Assembly (NCBI RefSeq): GCF_051903065.1
Contig: NZ_CP178438.1
Source: Escherichia coli
GTDB taxonomy: Bacteria > Pseudomonadota > Gammaproteobacteria > Enterobacterales > Enterobacteriaceae
Reading direction: 5' to 3' (one strand)
Length of the DNA stretch: 64,000 nt
The stretch's first letter is position 1, and every line of letters begins with the position of its first letter. The translations under genes and the position numbers were made by a program. Positions 8,736-19,698 of this stretch are shown here, in pieces. The notes beneath the pieces are model-generated. The model ran no database searches. It was not told the DNA's origin and worked only from the letters and a program-made list of their open reading frames with translations.

Positions 8736-9965
8736 TTATTCTCCTTGCGGCGCGGCTGCCGGAGTATCAGCTTGCGGTGCAGGTGCAGGTGCAGGTGCAG
8801 GTGCAGGTGCAGGTGCAGGTGCAGGTGCAGGTGCAGGTTTAGCTTCCGTTGTCTCCGCTGCCGGTTGTGCCAGCAGGTTACGCACGCGAGTCTGCATCAG
8901 TTTTTCCAGCATCGCCTGGCTTTGCAGGGTTTCCGGAAGATCCATCGAGATATTTTGCTGGCTTAACTGGTCCACCTCGTCGAGGAACGCTTTGGTGGTG
9001 GCATCATCAGTATCGTAGTAAGCACGTACCCAGGTGGAGACGTTCTCCAGCGCCTGGCGATAAGTCTCTTCCTGATGACGCGGTACAGCTTGTGCTGCGA
9101 CCAGCAGGCGAGAGCGAATATTTTCGCGCAGATAGATATCCTGATTTGGCGCTAACAGCGGTACGGCGGTGTCATCACGACGGCGAATCGTAATGAAGTT
9201 GTCCATAAAGTTCTGCCAGCTTTTTTGCAGATTGATACGCCATTCGCTGATGGAACTGGAAAGCTCTTCACCGTCGGAATCCATCGGCGAACCATCGCTG
9301 TCATTATCGGCCAGACGCAGGTTATCTACCTGATTTGAAAGCTGATTAAGCTTAAGGATGATGCCGTCATAATCCACCTGCGATACTGCAGAAAGGCTGG
9401 CGATATCATCGGTAATTGCCCGACGAACGGTAATCAAACTCGGGTCATTCATATCCGCCAGGCTGGCGTCTGCACTTTTCAGCAACGCTGCAGCGGTCGT
9501 GACGTCCTGATCGCTCCACAGCTTCCGTCCGGCGAGTTTCACCAGAAAATCGGCCTGAGCCAGCAGCCAGGTTTTAGCATCGCTGCCGGAAATGGTGGCG
9601 ACCTTTTGTTGGACTTCATCCAACTGTTTTGCCAGCGTTTCTTGCTGACGATTCGCCTGCTTAAGTTGTGCAGCTTGTTGCTTAATAATGCCTTCCAGCT
9701 CGGCTTTTTGGCTCTCCTGGGCTTTTTGCAATGCCGTCAGTTGGTTAGCCAGGGCATCGCTGGTGGCGGTCTGATTGACGGCCTGTTGTTTACCCCAGCC
9801 ATACAAACCGACGCCTGCCGCCAGAGCAATAGCGATAGCCACCGCACTGAGAATCAATGCGGTATTGTTCTTACTCTTTTTTTCTGTTGCGACAGGTTGT
9901 GACGTGGTGTCCACGGCCTCCCTGGTCTCTTCAACCACGGCGGAGGTTTTTTCTTGTTCCGTCAT
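8736..9965 (-). CDS. hemX: HemX (membrane-anchored protein with coiled-coil region and a C-terminal Pro-Ala repeat), 409 aa as called
   Basis: ORF 2 bp upstream of hemY; single TM; Gln/Ala-rich coiled-coil region; C-terminal (PA)n tract; product length may vary with repeat number. Confidence 0.8.
8776..8838. repeat. Perfect hexanucleotide tandem repeat (GGTGCA/TGCACC), about 10.5 units, encoding the (Pro-Ala)n tract of HemX
   Basis: ggtgcaggtgcaggtgca... read directly from the sequence. Confidence 0.95.
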
Positions 9966-14598: not shown

Positions 14599-14637
14599 TG
14601 AACGTGCCGGAAAGCGAGGCTTATCCGGCATGCAATC

Positions 14638-14958
14638 TTAGCGGAAACTGACTGTTTCACCCGCCTGCTGCGTCGCCGCCTGTTCCAGCAAATCCCAGAA
14701 GGTTTCGCCGCTGCGATCGCAAATCCACTCATCGCCTTTCAGATCAAAATGGTAGCCGCCTTGTTTGGTTGCCAGCCATACCTGGTGCAGCGGTTCCTGG
14801 CGGTTGATAATGATTTTGCTGCCATTCTCAAAGGTAATGGTCAGCACGCCGCCGTTGATTTCGCAGTCGATATCGCTGTCGCCATCCCAGTCGTCCAGGC
14901 GTTCTTCAATGGTCAGCCAGAGTTGATCAGCCAGGCGATGAAATTCACTGTCGTTCAT
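14638..14958 (-). CDS. cyaY: Frataxin-like iron-binding protein CyaY, 106 aa
   Basis: 106-aa acidic protein convergent with cyaA. Confidence 0.9.
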
Positions 14959-15040
14959 TGTTGTATCCTGTTTTTAAGTGATGGCGGCAGTATAAGTTGT
15001 TTCGTCTAACAGTGAAATCAACATGGTTCGGCTATAAAAC

Positions 15041-15466
15041 TTAACCTACATACCTCGTCCCATTCCAACGCAAGATTGTATCCTCGTCGCATAAAAGGTT
15101 GTGTACGCCATGATTCTTTTCTTTCATCAGGCTGATTTTGCTACAAAAATAATCAATGTTAATTTTGGAGTTATCCGGGGTCATAATACTGCAAGCCATA
15201 GTTGGTGCGTCACTCGCGGTATATCCACAATCGTCTTTCCCGCAGGCAGCGGGAGGCGTGGAGGGTGAATACGTGCAGTTAAGCGTTTCGGAAATGCCAT
15301 CATCGTTAATGTCGAGGGGACGGCTAATCTCATCGCTGTCAGTGCCTAATGTGGTTGCATCCAGGATGACGTTTGGTTTTTGTATCTCGCTTGTGGCCGC
15401 GTAATTGAAGCTGCTTGCGGCCATTATGCCTAGAGCTATGCCAATCCGTAAGGCTATTTTTTGCAT
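15041..15466 (-). CDS. Small secreted cysteine-rich hypothetical protein, 141 aa (island gene A)
   Basis: ATG with GAGGA RBS upstream; N-terminal signal peptide (ALGIMAASSFNYAA); six Cys in the mature part; start overlaps the stop of gene B; AT-rich. Confidence 0.6.
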   Translation of the reverse strand: MQKIALRIGIALGIMAASSFNYAATSEIQKPNVILDATTLGTDSDEISRPLDINDDGISETLNCTYSPSTPPAACGKDDCGYTASDAPTMACSIMTPDNSKINIDYFCSKISLMKEKNHGVHNLLCDEDTILRWNGTRYVG

Positions 15467-16749
15467 CCTGGTTCCTCTGTAATAATCATAATGTCTCTGT
15501 TTTGAACTTCACGCACATTCTCTTCTCTGACACGAGTTTTCGCCGGACAGGGGGATGGCGTAATCCTGACCTCTGTATCGGTCCAGGTATAAACATTGCG
15601 ATCGTCATAAGCGAAGCGATCGTTTTTAATTAGCGGGCCGTTAGTTGGAATAATTTGCACGCTCTTTGACCGTAATTGGCGGATAAAGTAAACATGTTGT
15701 TTGCCGCCATTAAATGAGTTATCAATGACCAGGTCTGGCGAATCCAGCGGAATTATTTCAAGCTGGTCTTCACCAAAAGTCGATAATTTTGTTACATACA
15801 GACGATCTTTATACTGCGCAATATTGCCAGTAATCAGATGAAATTGTTCAGGTTCAATATCCGGTAGGTCTATCCACTTGCTCCACTGACGGTCGGGCGA
15901 GAGCTGTTTACGCCAGCGAACGCGACTTTCCCCCACTTCAAAAGAGACGTCATCATCTACGGGTATCGCTTTGCCAGATAATTGCCCAAAGGGATAACGA
16001 TGCAGACCATTGTTGTCGCGAAAAACCAGCAGTGAATGAGGTATCCAGCGAATTATCTCAAATGAGTCTGCATTCGCCGTAAGGTGAACGCCATTTAAAT
16101 AAATATTCTGCCCACTGCGGATAAGCAGATCATTGGAATACAAATTTCTGTTTACACTCATAAGACGTGGATTAATACCCCACCATCTTTTTTCTAATAC
16201 AGTAACATTACTGCTGCTCCCCTGACGTCGACCGGACAAATAGAGATTTTTACTATCCACCAGCGTGGTAGAGTTACCTTCGATAGCTTTTAGTGTCGCC
16301 AGATCAACACGTGACGCGCCGCTATTACTTTCGGTGCGCTGTCCATCAAAATAGAGGCTATATTTATCGACCGCGAAGCGGCCCATAGCCTGAAAGCTGG
16401 CAATATCGACAGTGGGTATTCCCGGTGGATTGCTAACGATTTTGCCACGCCAGAGAATAACGCGGCCGTCTGTCACCCAGTGGTATTCCTCATTTTTTAT
16501 GCTTATTTCATCGGTGGGTATATAGCCTTCCACTAACTCCCGCTCCCCGGATATATTTGTCACAAGGCGCAAATCGGCTCTGTTCATCTTCGGAAATTGG
16601 GCAATGATTTTCTCATCCTCCCCATAACCTTTACCGTAAGACATGACACCGTGATCATTGTAATAGTCGAACCCTATGGCCTGTACAGCAGGTGTCAGAA
16701 ATGTGTGCCCCAACAGGATGAGTGCAACTGTGATTATTTGACCATTCAT
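15454..16749 (-). CDS. Secreted repeat protein, DKNYY-like family, 431 aa (island gene B)
   Basis: Signal peptide; repeated motifs DKYSLYFDG, SKNLYLSG, GQNIYLNG, ANADSFEII; paralogous to the upstream 502-aa gene; ATGA overlap with that gene's stop. Confidence 0.8.
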   Translation of the reverse strand: MNGQIITVALILLGHTFLTPAVQAIGFDYYNDHGVMSYGKGYGEDEKIIAQFPKMNRADLRLVTNISGERELVEGYIPTDEISIKNEEYHWVTDGRVILWRGKIVSNPPGIPTVDIASFQAMGRFAVDKYSLYFDGQRTESNSGASRVDLATLKAIEGNSTTLVDSKNLYLSGRRQGSSSNVTVLEKRWWGINPRLMSVNRNLYSNDLLIRSGQNIYLNGVHLTANADSFEIIRWIPHSLLVFRDNNGLHRYPFGQLSGKAIPVDDDVSFEVGESRVRWRKQLSPDRQWSKWIDLPDIEPEQFHLITGNIAQYKDRLYVTKLSTFGEDQLEIIPLDSPDLVIDNSFNGGKQHVYFIRQLRSKSVQIIPTNGPLIKNDRFAYDDRNVYTWTDTEVRITPSPCPAKTRVREENVREVQNRDIMIITEEPGCKK

Positions 16750-18254
16750 TTTGTCGCCTCATTGCGCGGGGCAGGAATAAATTCGCCGTCATCGGTAATT
16801 TTTCCGTCCAGATATCCCGTTTTGTAATTTACCCCGTAGCCATATCCCGAATGTTGTTCCTTCCAGATTAAGCGAACTTGTTTCGGATCAGCGGTGCGGT
16901 ATCGCCAGAGCTGCGCGCCATCAAAGCTGTAAACGTAGCGGTTATCGCGGGCATACCATCTGCGCAAAAAGGGATGGTCATTAAGATGGGCTTCGCGTTC
17001 ATCCGGAGAACGGTTATCCAGTAAGATCAGCGGTCCGTCAGATTCAAACACGTGTAAACCGGAATGGTATGGCCACCCTTCGGCACGCGTAAGTAAATAG
17101 CCGTGGCGTTTCCCGGCGTTGAAACGTTTGTTGATAATAAGATTGGGATCATCAAGTTTCACGATCTCCAGCTTGCGGTCACCAGACTCTGTTTCGATGA
17201 TGGTATAAAGCGAGTCCTGATACTGTGCGACAGCATCACTGATGGGGTGAAACTGTTCCGGATCGAGTCCGGGTAATTCTTCCTGTTTACAGTCAGGCCC
17301 CTGACGCCAGAACACTTTCTTTTCCAGCAGAGAAAAATCCAGACAGTGCTTTGTTAAATCTTCATCCCACGCCAGATTTTCCTTGTCGAGGACTTTACGC
17401 TGCAGCCCGTTTTTATCACGCCAGGTCAAGAGTGAGCCGGGCATCCAGCGCACGACGGAAAAAGTGTCCGGGTCGGCATCAAGCTGTTCGCCGTTGATCA
17501 GGATTTTGGTTCTTGTACGAGCCAGGGTATCCCAGGGGCCAAATGGCATAGCCACACAGGGATTAAACGCGGTAGAAAACTTTCCTCTTTGATCCCATGA
17601 CTTTTGTGCCAGCACACGGAAACTCTCGGGGTCAGCGAGGCGATGCCCATCGACATATAAGAAATTAGCGTCACGTAATATCAGCCCCAGTAAGTCAGGA
17701 TCCCAGGGAGGCCGGAATTCCACCTGATGCAGTGTTTTGATATCTACGCTATTTCCCCCGCCATTGTCATCGGTGCGCTTGCCTTCGAAATAGAGACTGT
17801 GTTTATCTGCGGCAAAATCACCCCATGCCTTGAACGAGGCGACATCGACGGGAGGTTTGTCTGGCGGGTTTTGCACAACTTCACCCGCGTAGAGGATATT
17901 GCGGCCATCGCTATGCCAGGAGTAATGAGGATACCAGGCTTGTGCGCCTTCATAGAGGTAGTCGGTTGTTAGATCAGTCAGAGGTGGTTCTTTATTCCAT
18001 TCATCTTGTGTTGTTGGGTCTATTAATAAATTGGGTAAACGGCGCAAACTCTTGTAATTCACGTCAGGTAGAGAAAGATTTGTTTCTTTATAAGGGCGCA
18101 GGTACACCACGCCTTTTCCCTGTTTCTGGTAAATATTATGTTCAGGTGCATCAAGCCGACATCCCCATGCCGACGATAAGAACAATGAACAAGCCAACAA
18201 ACAAACCACATTGCGATAGTGCATAAAGCCATCCTGGCGCGAGGTGTTGATCAC
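16746..18254 (-). CDS. Secreted repeat protein, DKNYY-like family, 502 aa as called (island gene C)
   Basis: GTG at 18254, or ATG at 18224 giving MHYRNVVCLLACSLFLSSAWG... signal peptide; motifs DKHSLYFEG, DANFLYVDG, ADPESFRVL, ADPDTFSVV; similar to gene B (e.g. NPPDKPPVDVASFKAWGDFAADKHSLYFEGKRT vs NPPGIPTVDIASFQAMGRFAVDKYSLYFDGQRT). Confidence 0.8.
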   Translation of the reverse strand: MINTSRQDGFMHYRNVVCLLACSLFLSSAWGCRLDAPEHNIYQKQGKGVVYLRPYKETNLSLPDVNYKSLRRLPNLLIDPTTQDEWNKEPPLTDLTTDYLYEGAQAWYPHYSWHSDGRNILYAGEVVQNPPDKPPVDVASFKAWGDFAADKHSLYFEGKRTDDNGGGNSVDIKTLHQVEFRPPWDPDLLGLILRDANFLYVDGHRLADPESFRVLAQKSWDQRGKFSTAFNPCVAMPFGPWDTLARTRTKILINGEQLDADPDTFSVVRWMPGSLLTWRDKNGLQRKVLDKENLAWDEDLTKHCLDFSLLEKKVFWRQGPDCKQEELPGLDPEQFHPISDAVAQYQDSLYTIIETESGDRKLEIVKLDDPNLIINKRFNAGKRHGYLLTRAEGWPYHSGLHVFESDGPLILLDNRSPDEREAHLNDHPFLRRWYARDNRYVYSFDGAQLWRYRTADPKQVRLIWKEQHSGYGYGVNYKTGYLDGKITDDGEFIPAPRNEATK

Positions 18255-18333
18255 GATACTGCCAGCAGAACATAAATCCTCACACGTAAGCGTAATTCTC
18301 GCGGCAAATCGTCACTTTTCAGAATCCATAAAG
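18163..18333. repeat. Copy 1 of a 171-bp direct repeat (promoter/leader/signal-peptide module), covering the 5' end of gene C
   Basis: About 93% identical to 19245-19415 at a constant offset of 1082 bp (ccccatgccgacgataa...cacttttcaga). Confidence 0.9.
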
Positions 18334-18590: not shown

Positions 18591-19145
18591 TCAATTCATT
18601 TTCCCTGTGCCATAAATTTTATCCTTCACATCCTGCCGAACGCGGGTCTTGTACCCCCCGTTGTGAAGATCTTCATACGGAGAAAAAGAATCTTTACTCC
18701 ACCCCAGCAGCACTTTATCGCCAGGCATAAAATGCACATGCAGAAAATCTTCTCCCCATTCTCTTTTGGGGAGAGGTAACGTCATATTCCGTTTCTCCAG
18801 ACGCATTCCAGCATTATACTGTGTACGAGTAGTACTTAATGTCCAGATAACCTCTGCAGTATCCCCACTGACATCACCACAACAGGTTGTTGAACCTCCA
18901 CCATTTGCAAAAGCATTCGCGCCCGCCACGCCGTTAACACTGAATCCCAGTATCGGACGGTCAATTTCACTGTGGATTTCCAGAATCACTCCACCTCTTG
19001 GACCTCCCCATACTGCCTGCCCTATATTCCACAACACGACCAGTACTGGAACGACAATTAACGTCCGCCATACCCAGCGCCCCCAGCGGGCATAACCGCG
19101 CGTAAGCTTTTGGTCAAATTTTTCCAGTTGGGTAAATAGCCCCAT
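18591..19145 (-). CDS. DUF3304-like membrane-anchored protein, 184 aa (island gene D)
   Basis: ATG with AGGGA RBS upstream; N-terminal TM segment (WRTLIVVPVLVVLWNIG); motifs GFSVNGVAGANAFANGGGSTTCCGD and LHVHFMPGDKVLLGW resemble DUF3304 proteins as I recall them. Confidence 0.6.
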   Translation of the reverse strand: MGLFTQLEKFDQKLTRGYARWGRWVWRTLIVVPVLVVLWNIGQAVWGGPRGGVILEIHSEIDRPILGFSVNGVAGANAFANGGGSTTCCGDVSGDTAEVIWTLSTTRTQYNAGMRLEKRNMTLPLPKREWGEDFLHVHFMPGDKVLLGWSKDSFSPYEDLHNGGYKTRVRQDVKDKIYGTGKMN

Positions 19146-19244
19146 CAGATTTTATTCCCTCTTATCACCAGGTTGGCAAAGTTGTATGTCACTAGCGACT
19201 AAGGTCAGACAACGAAATTGCATGGTGCGCCACTCTATTAAAAG

Positions 19245-19415
19245 CCCCATGCCGACGATAAAAACAACGAACAAGCCAACAAACAAACCACATTGCGATA
19301 GTGCATAAAGCCATCCTGGCGCGAGGTGTTGATCACGAAACTGCCAGCAGAACATAAATCCTCACGAGTAAGCGTTATACTCGCAGCATTTCCTCACTTT
19401 TCAGACTTCATAAAG
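19245..19415. repeat. Copy 2 of the 171-bp direct repeat, upstream of gene D; holds a 32-codon stub of the gene C signal peptide
   Basis: Minus-strand reading from GTG at 19336 gives VINTSRQDGFMHYRNVVCLLACSLFLSSAWGF then a stop at 19238-19240. Confidence 0.9.
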
Positions 19416-19494: not shown

Positions 19495-19698
19495 ATGAAA
19501 AACGTGTTTAAGGCACTCACTGTATTACTTACTCTCTTCAGCCTGACGGGCTGCGGTCTGAAAGGTCCGCTCTATTTCCCGCCTGCAGATAAAAATGCAC
19601 CGCCGCCGACCAAACCGGTAGAGACGCAAACGCAATCCACGGTGCCGGATAAAAACGATCGCGCCACTGGCGATGGTCCATCCCAGGTGAATTACTAA
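19495..19698 (+). CDS. yifL: Small lipoprotein YifL, 67 aa
   Basis: Lipobox LTGC after a short signal peptide; Pro-rich; directly upstream of dapF. Confidence 0.85.
   Translation: MKNVFKALTVLLTLFSLTGCGLKGPLYFPPADKNAPPPTKPVETQTQSTVPDKNDRATGDGPSQVNY

Follow-up and report, generated by a model that had tools for sequence, protein, structure and literature searches.

WHIX effectors, which take their name from the WHxxxH motif of the WHIX domain, have already been described together with the immunity genes that flank them. Signal-peptide proteins encoded beside the toxin domain of such effectors were shown experimentally to be the cognate immunity proteins, and 'double-blade' effectors with two toxin domains require two of them (PMC12135965). 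Immunity proteins of other systems include XAC2610 (X-Tfi) of a Xanthomonas type IV secretion system (T4SS), which has a Ca2+-binding acidic loop and a topology said to be common with Tsi1 and PliI-Ah (PMC10933484), and the proven Tli1 proteins, which carry the DUF3304 domain and act against Tle1 phospholipase effectors (PMC13133936). Here, a stretch of 64,000 nucleotides (nt) of the Escherichia coli chromosome (NCBI RefSeq assembly GCF_051903065.1, contig NZ_CP178438.1; hereafter the window) was analysed, in which a small gene of the minus strand, gene A, lies at positions 15041-15466 in an islet between cyaY and lptM. As a preliminary description of this DNA had stated, gene A is an open reading frame (ORF) of 141 amino acids (aa) with a signal peptide and six cysteines. 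That description recognised no family for the protein, and suggested that it could be a partner, inhibitor or chaperone of the products of two neighbouring genes, B and C. On balance, we favour the reading that gene A encodes an orphan periplasmic immunity protein directed against a peptidoglycan-cleaving effector of a type VI secretion system (T6SS).

The family of gene A and its toxin-linked members

The coding sequence annotated in RefSeq is identical to the gene A ORF and is listed as the hypothetical protein WP_047624399.1. A phmmer search with this protein of 1.84 billion representative proteins returned 22 matches at E<=1e-3, nearly all of 135-150 aa, with five members of 137-144 aa at E values of 4e-13 to 1e-10, and these homologues contradict the possibility that the ORF is spurious. 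While a word-indexed search with the same query yielded no more than two clusters, of 94% and 50% identity, a profile search added members from Pluralibacter, Enterobacter hormaechei, Erwinia, Pantoea, Cronobacter and Commensalibacter, all of them annotated as hypothetical and none with a Pfam domain. Gene A scored 97 bits against a hidden Markov model built without the window's own subgroup, and a tblastn search of the window with the T6SS-linked member of Enterobacter hormaechei matched gene A at E 4e-17. We regard it as almost certain that gene A belongs to an unnamed family, which comprises exported proteins and lipoproteins of about 135-150 aa in some 22 clusters at 50% identity. The earlier remark on the lack of a recognisable family therefore stands for named families and models and falls for the family as such. 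Gene A matched no Pfam family at E<=1 apart from a chance match to Ion_trans_N and had no NCBIfam match, PADLOC gave no match for A, B, C or the further islet gene D, and a PDB profile search with the family returned only chance zinc-finger matches. A literature search found no experimental test of any member, and the family is not covered in a study of the Pantoea T6SS (PMC9796082) or in one of structural bioinformatics (PMC11148199).

UniRef names a 141-aa variant of gene A (P0070) 'Cyanovirin-N domain-containing protein', and a small, beta-rich and presumably disulfide-bonded protein would suit a cyanovirin-N-type lectin. This identity was rejected, and is scarcely credible: Pfam gave no match, the hhalign probability was 0.3%, and the fold matches included no CVN structure.

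In an alignment of 35 members (A3), all 35 have a hydrophobic N-terminal leader and 11 have a lipobox. The leader of gene A, MQKIALRIGIALGIMAASSFNYAA, has the n/h/c arrangement of a Sec signal peptide, as read from its sequence. Residues C108, C126, L132, W134 and Y139 are invariant in the alignment and D52, P71, C75, C80 and G136 nearly so, C75 and C80 being present in 34 of the 35 sequences; the C-terminal motif of the family, L-x-W-N-G-x-x-Y, is present in gene A. A loop of the form D-[IL]-[ND]-x-D-G-x-x-[DE] is also conserved (D52 in 32, D56 in 29, G57 in 28 and D/E60 in 30 of the members), and in gene A it may bind Ca2+, as judged from its likeness to known motifs. The six cysteines of gene A stand in the contexts NCT (C64), AAC (C75), DDC (C80), MAC (C92), YFC (C108) and LLC (C126). 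Conservation of this pattern among homologues was found family-wide for C75, C80, C108 and C126, and only within the subgroup for C64 and C92, which occur together in the window protein and two relatives (P0001 and P0002), these positions being Tyr and Phe in the remaining members. The joint replacement of C64 and C92 suggests that they are in contact and form a third, subgroup-specific disulfide. The disulfides would be C75-C80, C108-C126 and, in the subgroup, C64-C92. Leader and cysteine pattern together are consistent with the exported, cysteine-stabilised protein that had been proposed.

AlphaFold2, run on the 35-sequence alignment, predicted an all-beta protein with a mean predicted local distance difference test (pLDDT) score of 83.6, above 90 over most of residues 31-141 with a dip in 71-90; this model replaced one made from the single sequence (pLDDT 43). 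In the leader, residues 3-17 were modelled as a helix, followed by a low-confidence linker. A Foldseek comparison of the model with the PDB gave no match at E<=0.001.

The evidence on function comes from the genes beside which the family is encoded. A family member lies directly downstream of a toxin gene in six loci, five of named genera and one on a metagenomic contig, and in these loci the family gene begins 2 nt after the stop codon of the large toxin gene or overlaps it. Cronobacter sakazakii has Hcp, VgrG, a DUF3828 gene, a gene for an 883-aa protein and, 2 nt later, the family member, while the order in Pluralibacter gergoviae is VgrG, two DUF3828-like genes, a 924-aa ORF and the family member. 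In Pantoea and Erwinia, VgrG is followed by a protein of 730 aa or 753 aa, respectively, and then by the family member. The effector of Enterobacter hormaechei is split into ORFs of 551 and 199 aa, followed by the family member, and the whole module sits between tssF and tssG; at this locus (L013 5741-9266) a second copy of the final 64 tssF codons follows the module (9072-9266). On the metagenomic contig, a 367-aa ORF overlaps the family member by 11 nt.

The five toxins at T6SS loci, encoded after VgrG or within a T6SS cluster, form one family of proteins that are 50-81% identical pairwise, and all five contain WHGGIH, an instance of the WHxxxH motif. Their WHIX part shares 85% DNA identity with that of E. 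coli WP_115423830.1, a protein listed in the data files of the WHIX paper (PMC12135965). The C-terminal 200 or so residues match PDB entry 9udh, a 'lytic transglycosidase', at E values of 1e-32 to 1e-35, with weak matches to the SLT and EF-hand families of Pfam. The toxins of Cronobacter and Pluralibacter carry an additional Tae4-like amidase domain at the N-terminus (PDB 4hz9, E 1e-20). In both loci a DUF3828/Tai3-like gene precedes the toxin gene and the family member follows it, a layout in agreement with the two-immunity rule of the WHIX paper. The metagenomic 367-aa ORF, which may be truncated at its N-terminus, has the same C-terminal domain (52% identity) and no WHxxxH motif; the constant partner of the family is therefore the SLT-like/EF-hand domain, whatever protein carries it. 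The identities among toxin domains and those among the adjoining family members covary (r = 0.96 for 15 comparisons among the six pairs), a co-divergence that is confounded by shared phylogeny.

As read from gene order, the layout of the family beside these toxins is the classic effector-immunity arrangement, and we hold with good confidence that the family consists of immunity proteins. A variation on it is seen in E. coli SC418, where the WHIX effector ends in a GH24 domain and is followed by a different gene of 147 aa, and a family member (155 bits) that has lost a little of its C-terminus lies further downstream; this copy looks like an immunity gene left behind after a swap of the toxin domain. 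The next gene after it, in the same T6SS cluster (L023 6010-9518), encodes an LprI lysozyme inhibitor. The member in Commensalibacter papalotli (L015 8001-8438) stands alone among metabolic genes with no T6SS gene within 8 kb, and lies about 2.3 kb from dapF, which may be a coincidence.

The protein encoded by gene A would thus be a Sec-exported, disulfide-stabilised, all-beta protein that waits in the periplasm, where it would bind an incoming toxin domain one-to-one and occlude its active-site cleft, leaving the cell wall uncut. The toxin domain of its partner would be an SLT-like (lysozyme-superfamily) domain with an EF-hand that cleaves glycan strands. Gene A would protect E. coli from the effector of a rival and not from one of its own.

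Distribution and movement of gene A

In the window, gene A is not downstream of an SLT-like/EF-hand toxin gene; the gene upstream of it is B, which encodes an exported DKNYY-like protein. The 64-kb window contains no match to Hcp, VgrG, WHIX or the SLT-like toxin domain. Effector DNA was matched in only eight E. coli genomes, in none of them through the SLT-like part, and the strain of the window is not among the eight. With no toxin-domain gene next to it, gene A counts as an orphan, as do the copies in SC418 and Commensalibacter. The identity trend predicts for its cognate toxin domain no more than about 50% identity to those already known.

Of 5,426 complete E. coli genomes, 16 carry gene A, about 920 have 80% or more of the stretch from cyaY to gene D, and some 900 have B and C without A. 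In this common form of the islet, B is a protein of 441 aa with a different C-terminal tail, and an alignment of the 71 bp that stand in place of the gene A segment gave no convincing remnant of gene A. Variants of at least 90% identity are recorded from Pseudocitrobacter and, within Escherichia, from E. coli, E. marmotae and others, and at least 1,000 contigs carry one of these variants. No locus was found in 100,044 species-representative genomes, whether these were searched with the alignment of the subgroup or by means of a degenerate DNA pattern for PPAACGKDDCGYTA, and a metagenome scan for the subgroup added only one, an islet of the E. coli type.

This distribution bears on a further role that might be considered, in which gene A would inhibit lysozyme-type enzymes in general from within the periplasm, as Ivy, MliC/PliC and PliI do, and would act on host lysozymes or on the cell's own lytic transglycosylases. 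Gene A has no match to the Ivy, MliC, PliI, PliG or LprI families (Pfam at E<=1; none in NCBIfam), its rare and patchy occurrence is unlike that of a housekeeping inhibitor, and the one-to-one synteny and co-divergence of the family with one toxin domain point to specific pairs. We therefore consider such a role improbable. The earlier suggestion that gene A could be an inhibitor is probably correct as a general idea, but not with the B and C proteins as its target.

In Pseudocitrobacter, gene A alone fills the gap from lptM to cyaY, and B, C and D are missing there (L027 8001-8426 and L028 3763-4188). The BLAST match between the two genera covers window positions 14623-15493 and ends 27 nt upstream of the gene A start codon. 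DNA identity is 97.4% in gene A and 97.6% in the spacer that follows it, as against 91% in cyaY, 85.2% in cyaA and 84.5% in dapF. This difference between gene A and flanks at about 85% looks like a recent exchange of a one-gene cassette between genera. Upstream of its gene A, Pseudocitrobacter has AAGGA at a similar distance to the Shine-Dalgarno sequence of the window, in an otherwise unrelated leader.

An orphan gene may also be a decaying, functionless relic that hitch-hikes in a recombination hot spot, and the lack of a cognate toxin, the low frequency in E. coli, the many islets without A and the slight truncation of the SC418 copy would all be in keeping with this. In contrast, the ORF of gene A is intact, with a good Shine-Dalgarno sequence in two upstream contexts, and all family-invariant residues are kept. 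Its close variants are found in Escherichia and Pseudocitrobacter, and synonymous codon changes relative to the Pseudocitrobacter copy outnumber non-synonymous ones by seven to four. We thus give the relic explanation little credence, and think it rather probable that the orphan gene still functions as an immunity protein.

The gene order of the window could instead suggest that gene A is a dedicated partner of the co-transcribed, DKNYY-like B and C proteins. The start codon of gene A (ATG, 15466-15464) lies 13 nt inside gene B (stop codon TAG, 15456-15454), and since genes C and B overlap by 4 nt and B and A by these 13 nt, the three are likely to form one operon with translational coupling, as judged from gene spacing; promoter and terminator scans gave nothing above shuffled background. 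The closest relative, P0002, which is 50% identical to gene A, is the first gene in a Klebsiella-like locus, where three B/C paralogues follow and it overlaps a paralogue by 11 nt. The extra cysteine pair of the subgroup would also accord with a role of its own beside B and C. A 105-aa C-terminal fragment of a TnpB/Cas12f-like protein, an insertion sequence remnant, lies between dapF and the A-like gene at the Klebsiella-like locus (L002 1240-1557).

Against such a partnership, and against the suggested role as partner, inhibitor or chaperone of B and C, B and C occur without A in the 900 or so E. coli genomes mentioned above, and B/C paralogues occur without A at the lptM-cyaY site in Klebsiella spallanzanii (four genes), Citrobacter (two) and a metagenomic enterobacterial contig (one). 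Conversely, A occurs without B and C in Pseudocitrobacter, having moved between genera as a one-gene cassette. The position of the gene in the operon also varies, from last in E. coli to first in the Klebsiella-like locus, and family members outside the window's subgroup adjoin toxins, and none of them adjoins a DKNYY protein. Gene A itself did not match DKNYY (Pfam PF13644), and BLASTP found no similarity of A to B or C. It is thus quite unlikely that gene A is a dedicated partner of B and C.

Several points weigh against the assignment of gene A as an orphan immunity protein. The immunity role of the family as a whole is deduced from synteny and from analogy with the neighbours of other WHIX effectors, the co-divergence of the pairs being open to the phylogenetic explanation given above. 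Identity between the window's subgroup and the toxin-linked members amounts to only 27-37%, and no cognate toxin was found for the subgroup. Overlapping frames tie the subgroup into DKNYY-type operons in two genera, and it could have taken on a new role there.

The islet between cyaY and lptM

The gene order of the window is that of the E. coli chromosome, with hemX-hemD-hemC, cyaA and cyaY on one side of the islet and lptM-dapF-xerC-uvrD on the other. The product of hemX (8736-9965), labelled 'uroporphyrinogen-III C-methyltransferase' in RefSeq, ends in a run of Pro-Ala repeats. Between cyaY and lptM lie four genes of the minus strand, D, C, B and A, of which RefSeq lists A, B and C as hypothetical, and the islet has a G+C content of 42-50% compared with 52-57% in its flanks. 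Gene A, the last of the four, stops at 15041, 82 nt before the cyaY start codon at 14958, close to the 80 bp given in the preliminary description. The coordinates are collected below.

Features of gene A and of the cyaY-lptM islet (window positions)
Feature	Position	Strand	Basis or remark
Gene A, 141-aa exported protein, putative T6SS immunity family	15041..15466	-	ORF list, RefSeq coding sequence and family searches
Shine-Dalgarno sequence GAGGA	15473..15477	-	6 nt upstream of gene A ATG, within 3' end of gene B
Signal-peptide coding region of gene A, MQKIALRIGIALGIMAASSFNYAA	15395..15466	-	translation of gene A N-terminus
DINDDGISE, DxNxDGxxE loop resembling Ca2+-binding motif	15287..15313	-	translation
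Codon C64	15275-15277	-	arithmetic from start
Codon C75	15242-15244	-	arithmetic from start
Codon C80	15227-15229	-	arithmetic from start
Codon C92	15191-15193	-	arithmetic from start
Codon C108	15143-15145	-	arithmetic from start
Codon C126	15089-15091	-	arithmetic from start
489-bp segment specific to window allele	14995..15483		BLAST against L008; 71 unrelated bp instead in common islet
One-gene cassette (27-nt leader, gene A, 82-nt spacer to cyaY)	14959..15493	-	shared with Pseudocitrobacter
Gene B, 431-aa exported DKNYY-like protein	15454..16749	-	Pfam DKNYY, 30.2 bits
Gene C, 502-aa DKNYY-like paralogue with lipoprotein-type leader	16746..18254	-	37% identical to B; DKNYY, 24 bits
Gene D, DUF3304 protein	18591..19145	-	Pfam DUF3304, 22.9 bits (cut-off 22); weak NCBIfam Tli1a
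cyaY, islet boundary	14638..14958	-	ORF list, RefSeq
lptM (yifL), other islet boundary	19495..19698	+	RefSeq
Direct repeat copy 1, leader and first 31 codons of gene C	18163..18333		sequence comparison
Direct repeat copy 2, upstream of D	19245..19415		92% identical to copy 1

The tail of B (15454-15540) ends in IMIITEEPGCKK in the window and in IIIPLTDESCRNAAAEVQTLKP in the common allele. Both tails resemble those of B orthologues in other genera, which places the allele boundary inside the last ten or so codons of B, and the window tail, being like normal orthologue tails, indicates that B is not truncated. No useful match came from a profile search of the PDB with the alignment of B and C, and a literature search on DKNYY found no relevant paper.

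Gene D is bracketed by a direct repeat of 171 nt, in which the signal peptide of gene C, MINTSRQDGFMHYRNVVCLLACSLFLSSAWG, is encoded; the second copy carries a 32-aa ORF (19238-19336, minus strand) that is a stub of this signal peptide. Recombination within the signal-peptide region of a C-like gene thus seems to have brought gene D in. In other species, the lptM-cyaY gap holds one to four DKNYY-like paralogues (loci L020, L021, L022 and L002). Other cargo accompanies some of them: L021 has a PAP2 phosphatase gene, and in K. spallanzanii there are genes of the GntR, amidohydrolase and MFS types. The gap is, in general, a hot spot at which genes for exported proteins vary.

Two bolder interpretations of this site can be envisaged. 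The cyaY-lptM gap of Enterobacteriaceae could be an undescribed hot spot of interbacterial defence, in which single cassettes for exported proteins, gene A and gene D among them, are swapped behind one promoter and signal-peptide region that they share and B and C represent a new immunity family. Alternatively, the A subgroup, with its additional disulfide, could serve alongside B and C in the periplasm in a newly acquired role. Taken together we regard these as possible but doubtful.

Comparison with described systems

The assignment of gene A as an orphan immunity protein would provide a protein that is 'hypothetical' in RefSeq with a testable function, and the analysis delineates a family that has no Pfam or NCBIfam model. 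Since this family is paired with the 9udh-type SLT-like/EF-hand domain of WHIX effectors, it offers a ready effector-immunity pair. Some E. coli, E. marmotae and Pseudocitrobacter would then carry a probable antidote to a toxin that they do not make themselves, which bears on displacement in the gut, and the cyaY-lptM site is flagged as a hot spot for cassettes. What is new here is the delineation of the family, its pairing with the 9udh-type domain, and gene A as an orphan single cassette at cyaY-lptM. In kind the finding is unsurprising, as there is ample record of orphan immunity genes and islets, SAIDI-1 being one example (PMC7400221).

The likeness of gene A to XAC2610 is suggestive only. 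The gene A family has a conserved DxNxDGxxD/E loop, and XAC2610 a Ca2+-binding acidic loop (PMC10933484); in beta-propeller-like peptidoglycan-hydrolase inhibitors of the XAC2610, Tsi1 and PliI type, an inhibitory loop also enters the active site of the enzyme. XAC2610 is about twice as long as gene A and showed no sequence similarity to it in the PDB profile search, and the structural match between them was no better than that to generic propeller blades. Gene D, which is unrelated to A, shares DUF3304 with Tli1, but has a membrane anchor in place of a lipoprotein signal. The effectors beside the family are similar in build to TseP of Aeromonas dhakensis, which combines an N-terminal module, an EF-hand and a C-terminal glycan-cleaving domain and is neutralised by TsiP, a small protein encoded downstream (PMC11893102). 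In the sequence search, however, the SLT-like domain matched 9udh and not the entry for the TseP C-domain, and no Aeromonas protein was among the family matches of the phmmer and profile searches.

In its setting, the islet can be compared with SAIDI-1 of Salmonella Typhi and the acquired interbacterial defence clusters of Bacteroides (PMC7400221). While SAIDI-1 is an array of eight or more genes, the cyaY-lptM islet has four, of which only A and D are of immunity type, B and C having no known link to secretion-system toxins. Both are low-G+C islets in a gap of the core genome, with genes whose counterparts elsewhere follow T6SS effectors, while the host has no cognate effector. With AwiD and AwiU, the immunity proteins of Awe1 in Aeromonas jandaei (PMC12135965), the comparison concerns the family. 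WHIX immunity proteins adjoin their effector, whereas the window copy of gene A adjoins none, and the family, which has neither name nor model, is likened to AwiD by gene layout and not by sequence. Elsewhere, its members are likewise signal-peptide proteins whose gene adjoins the peptidoglycan-targeting C-terminal domain of a WHxxxH effector.

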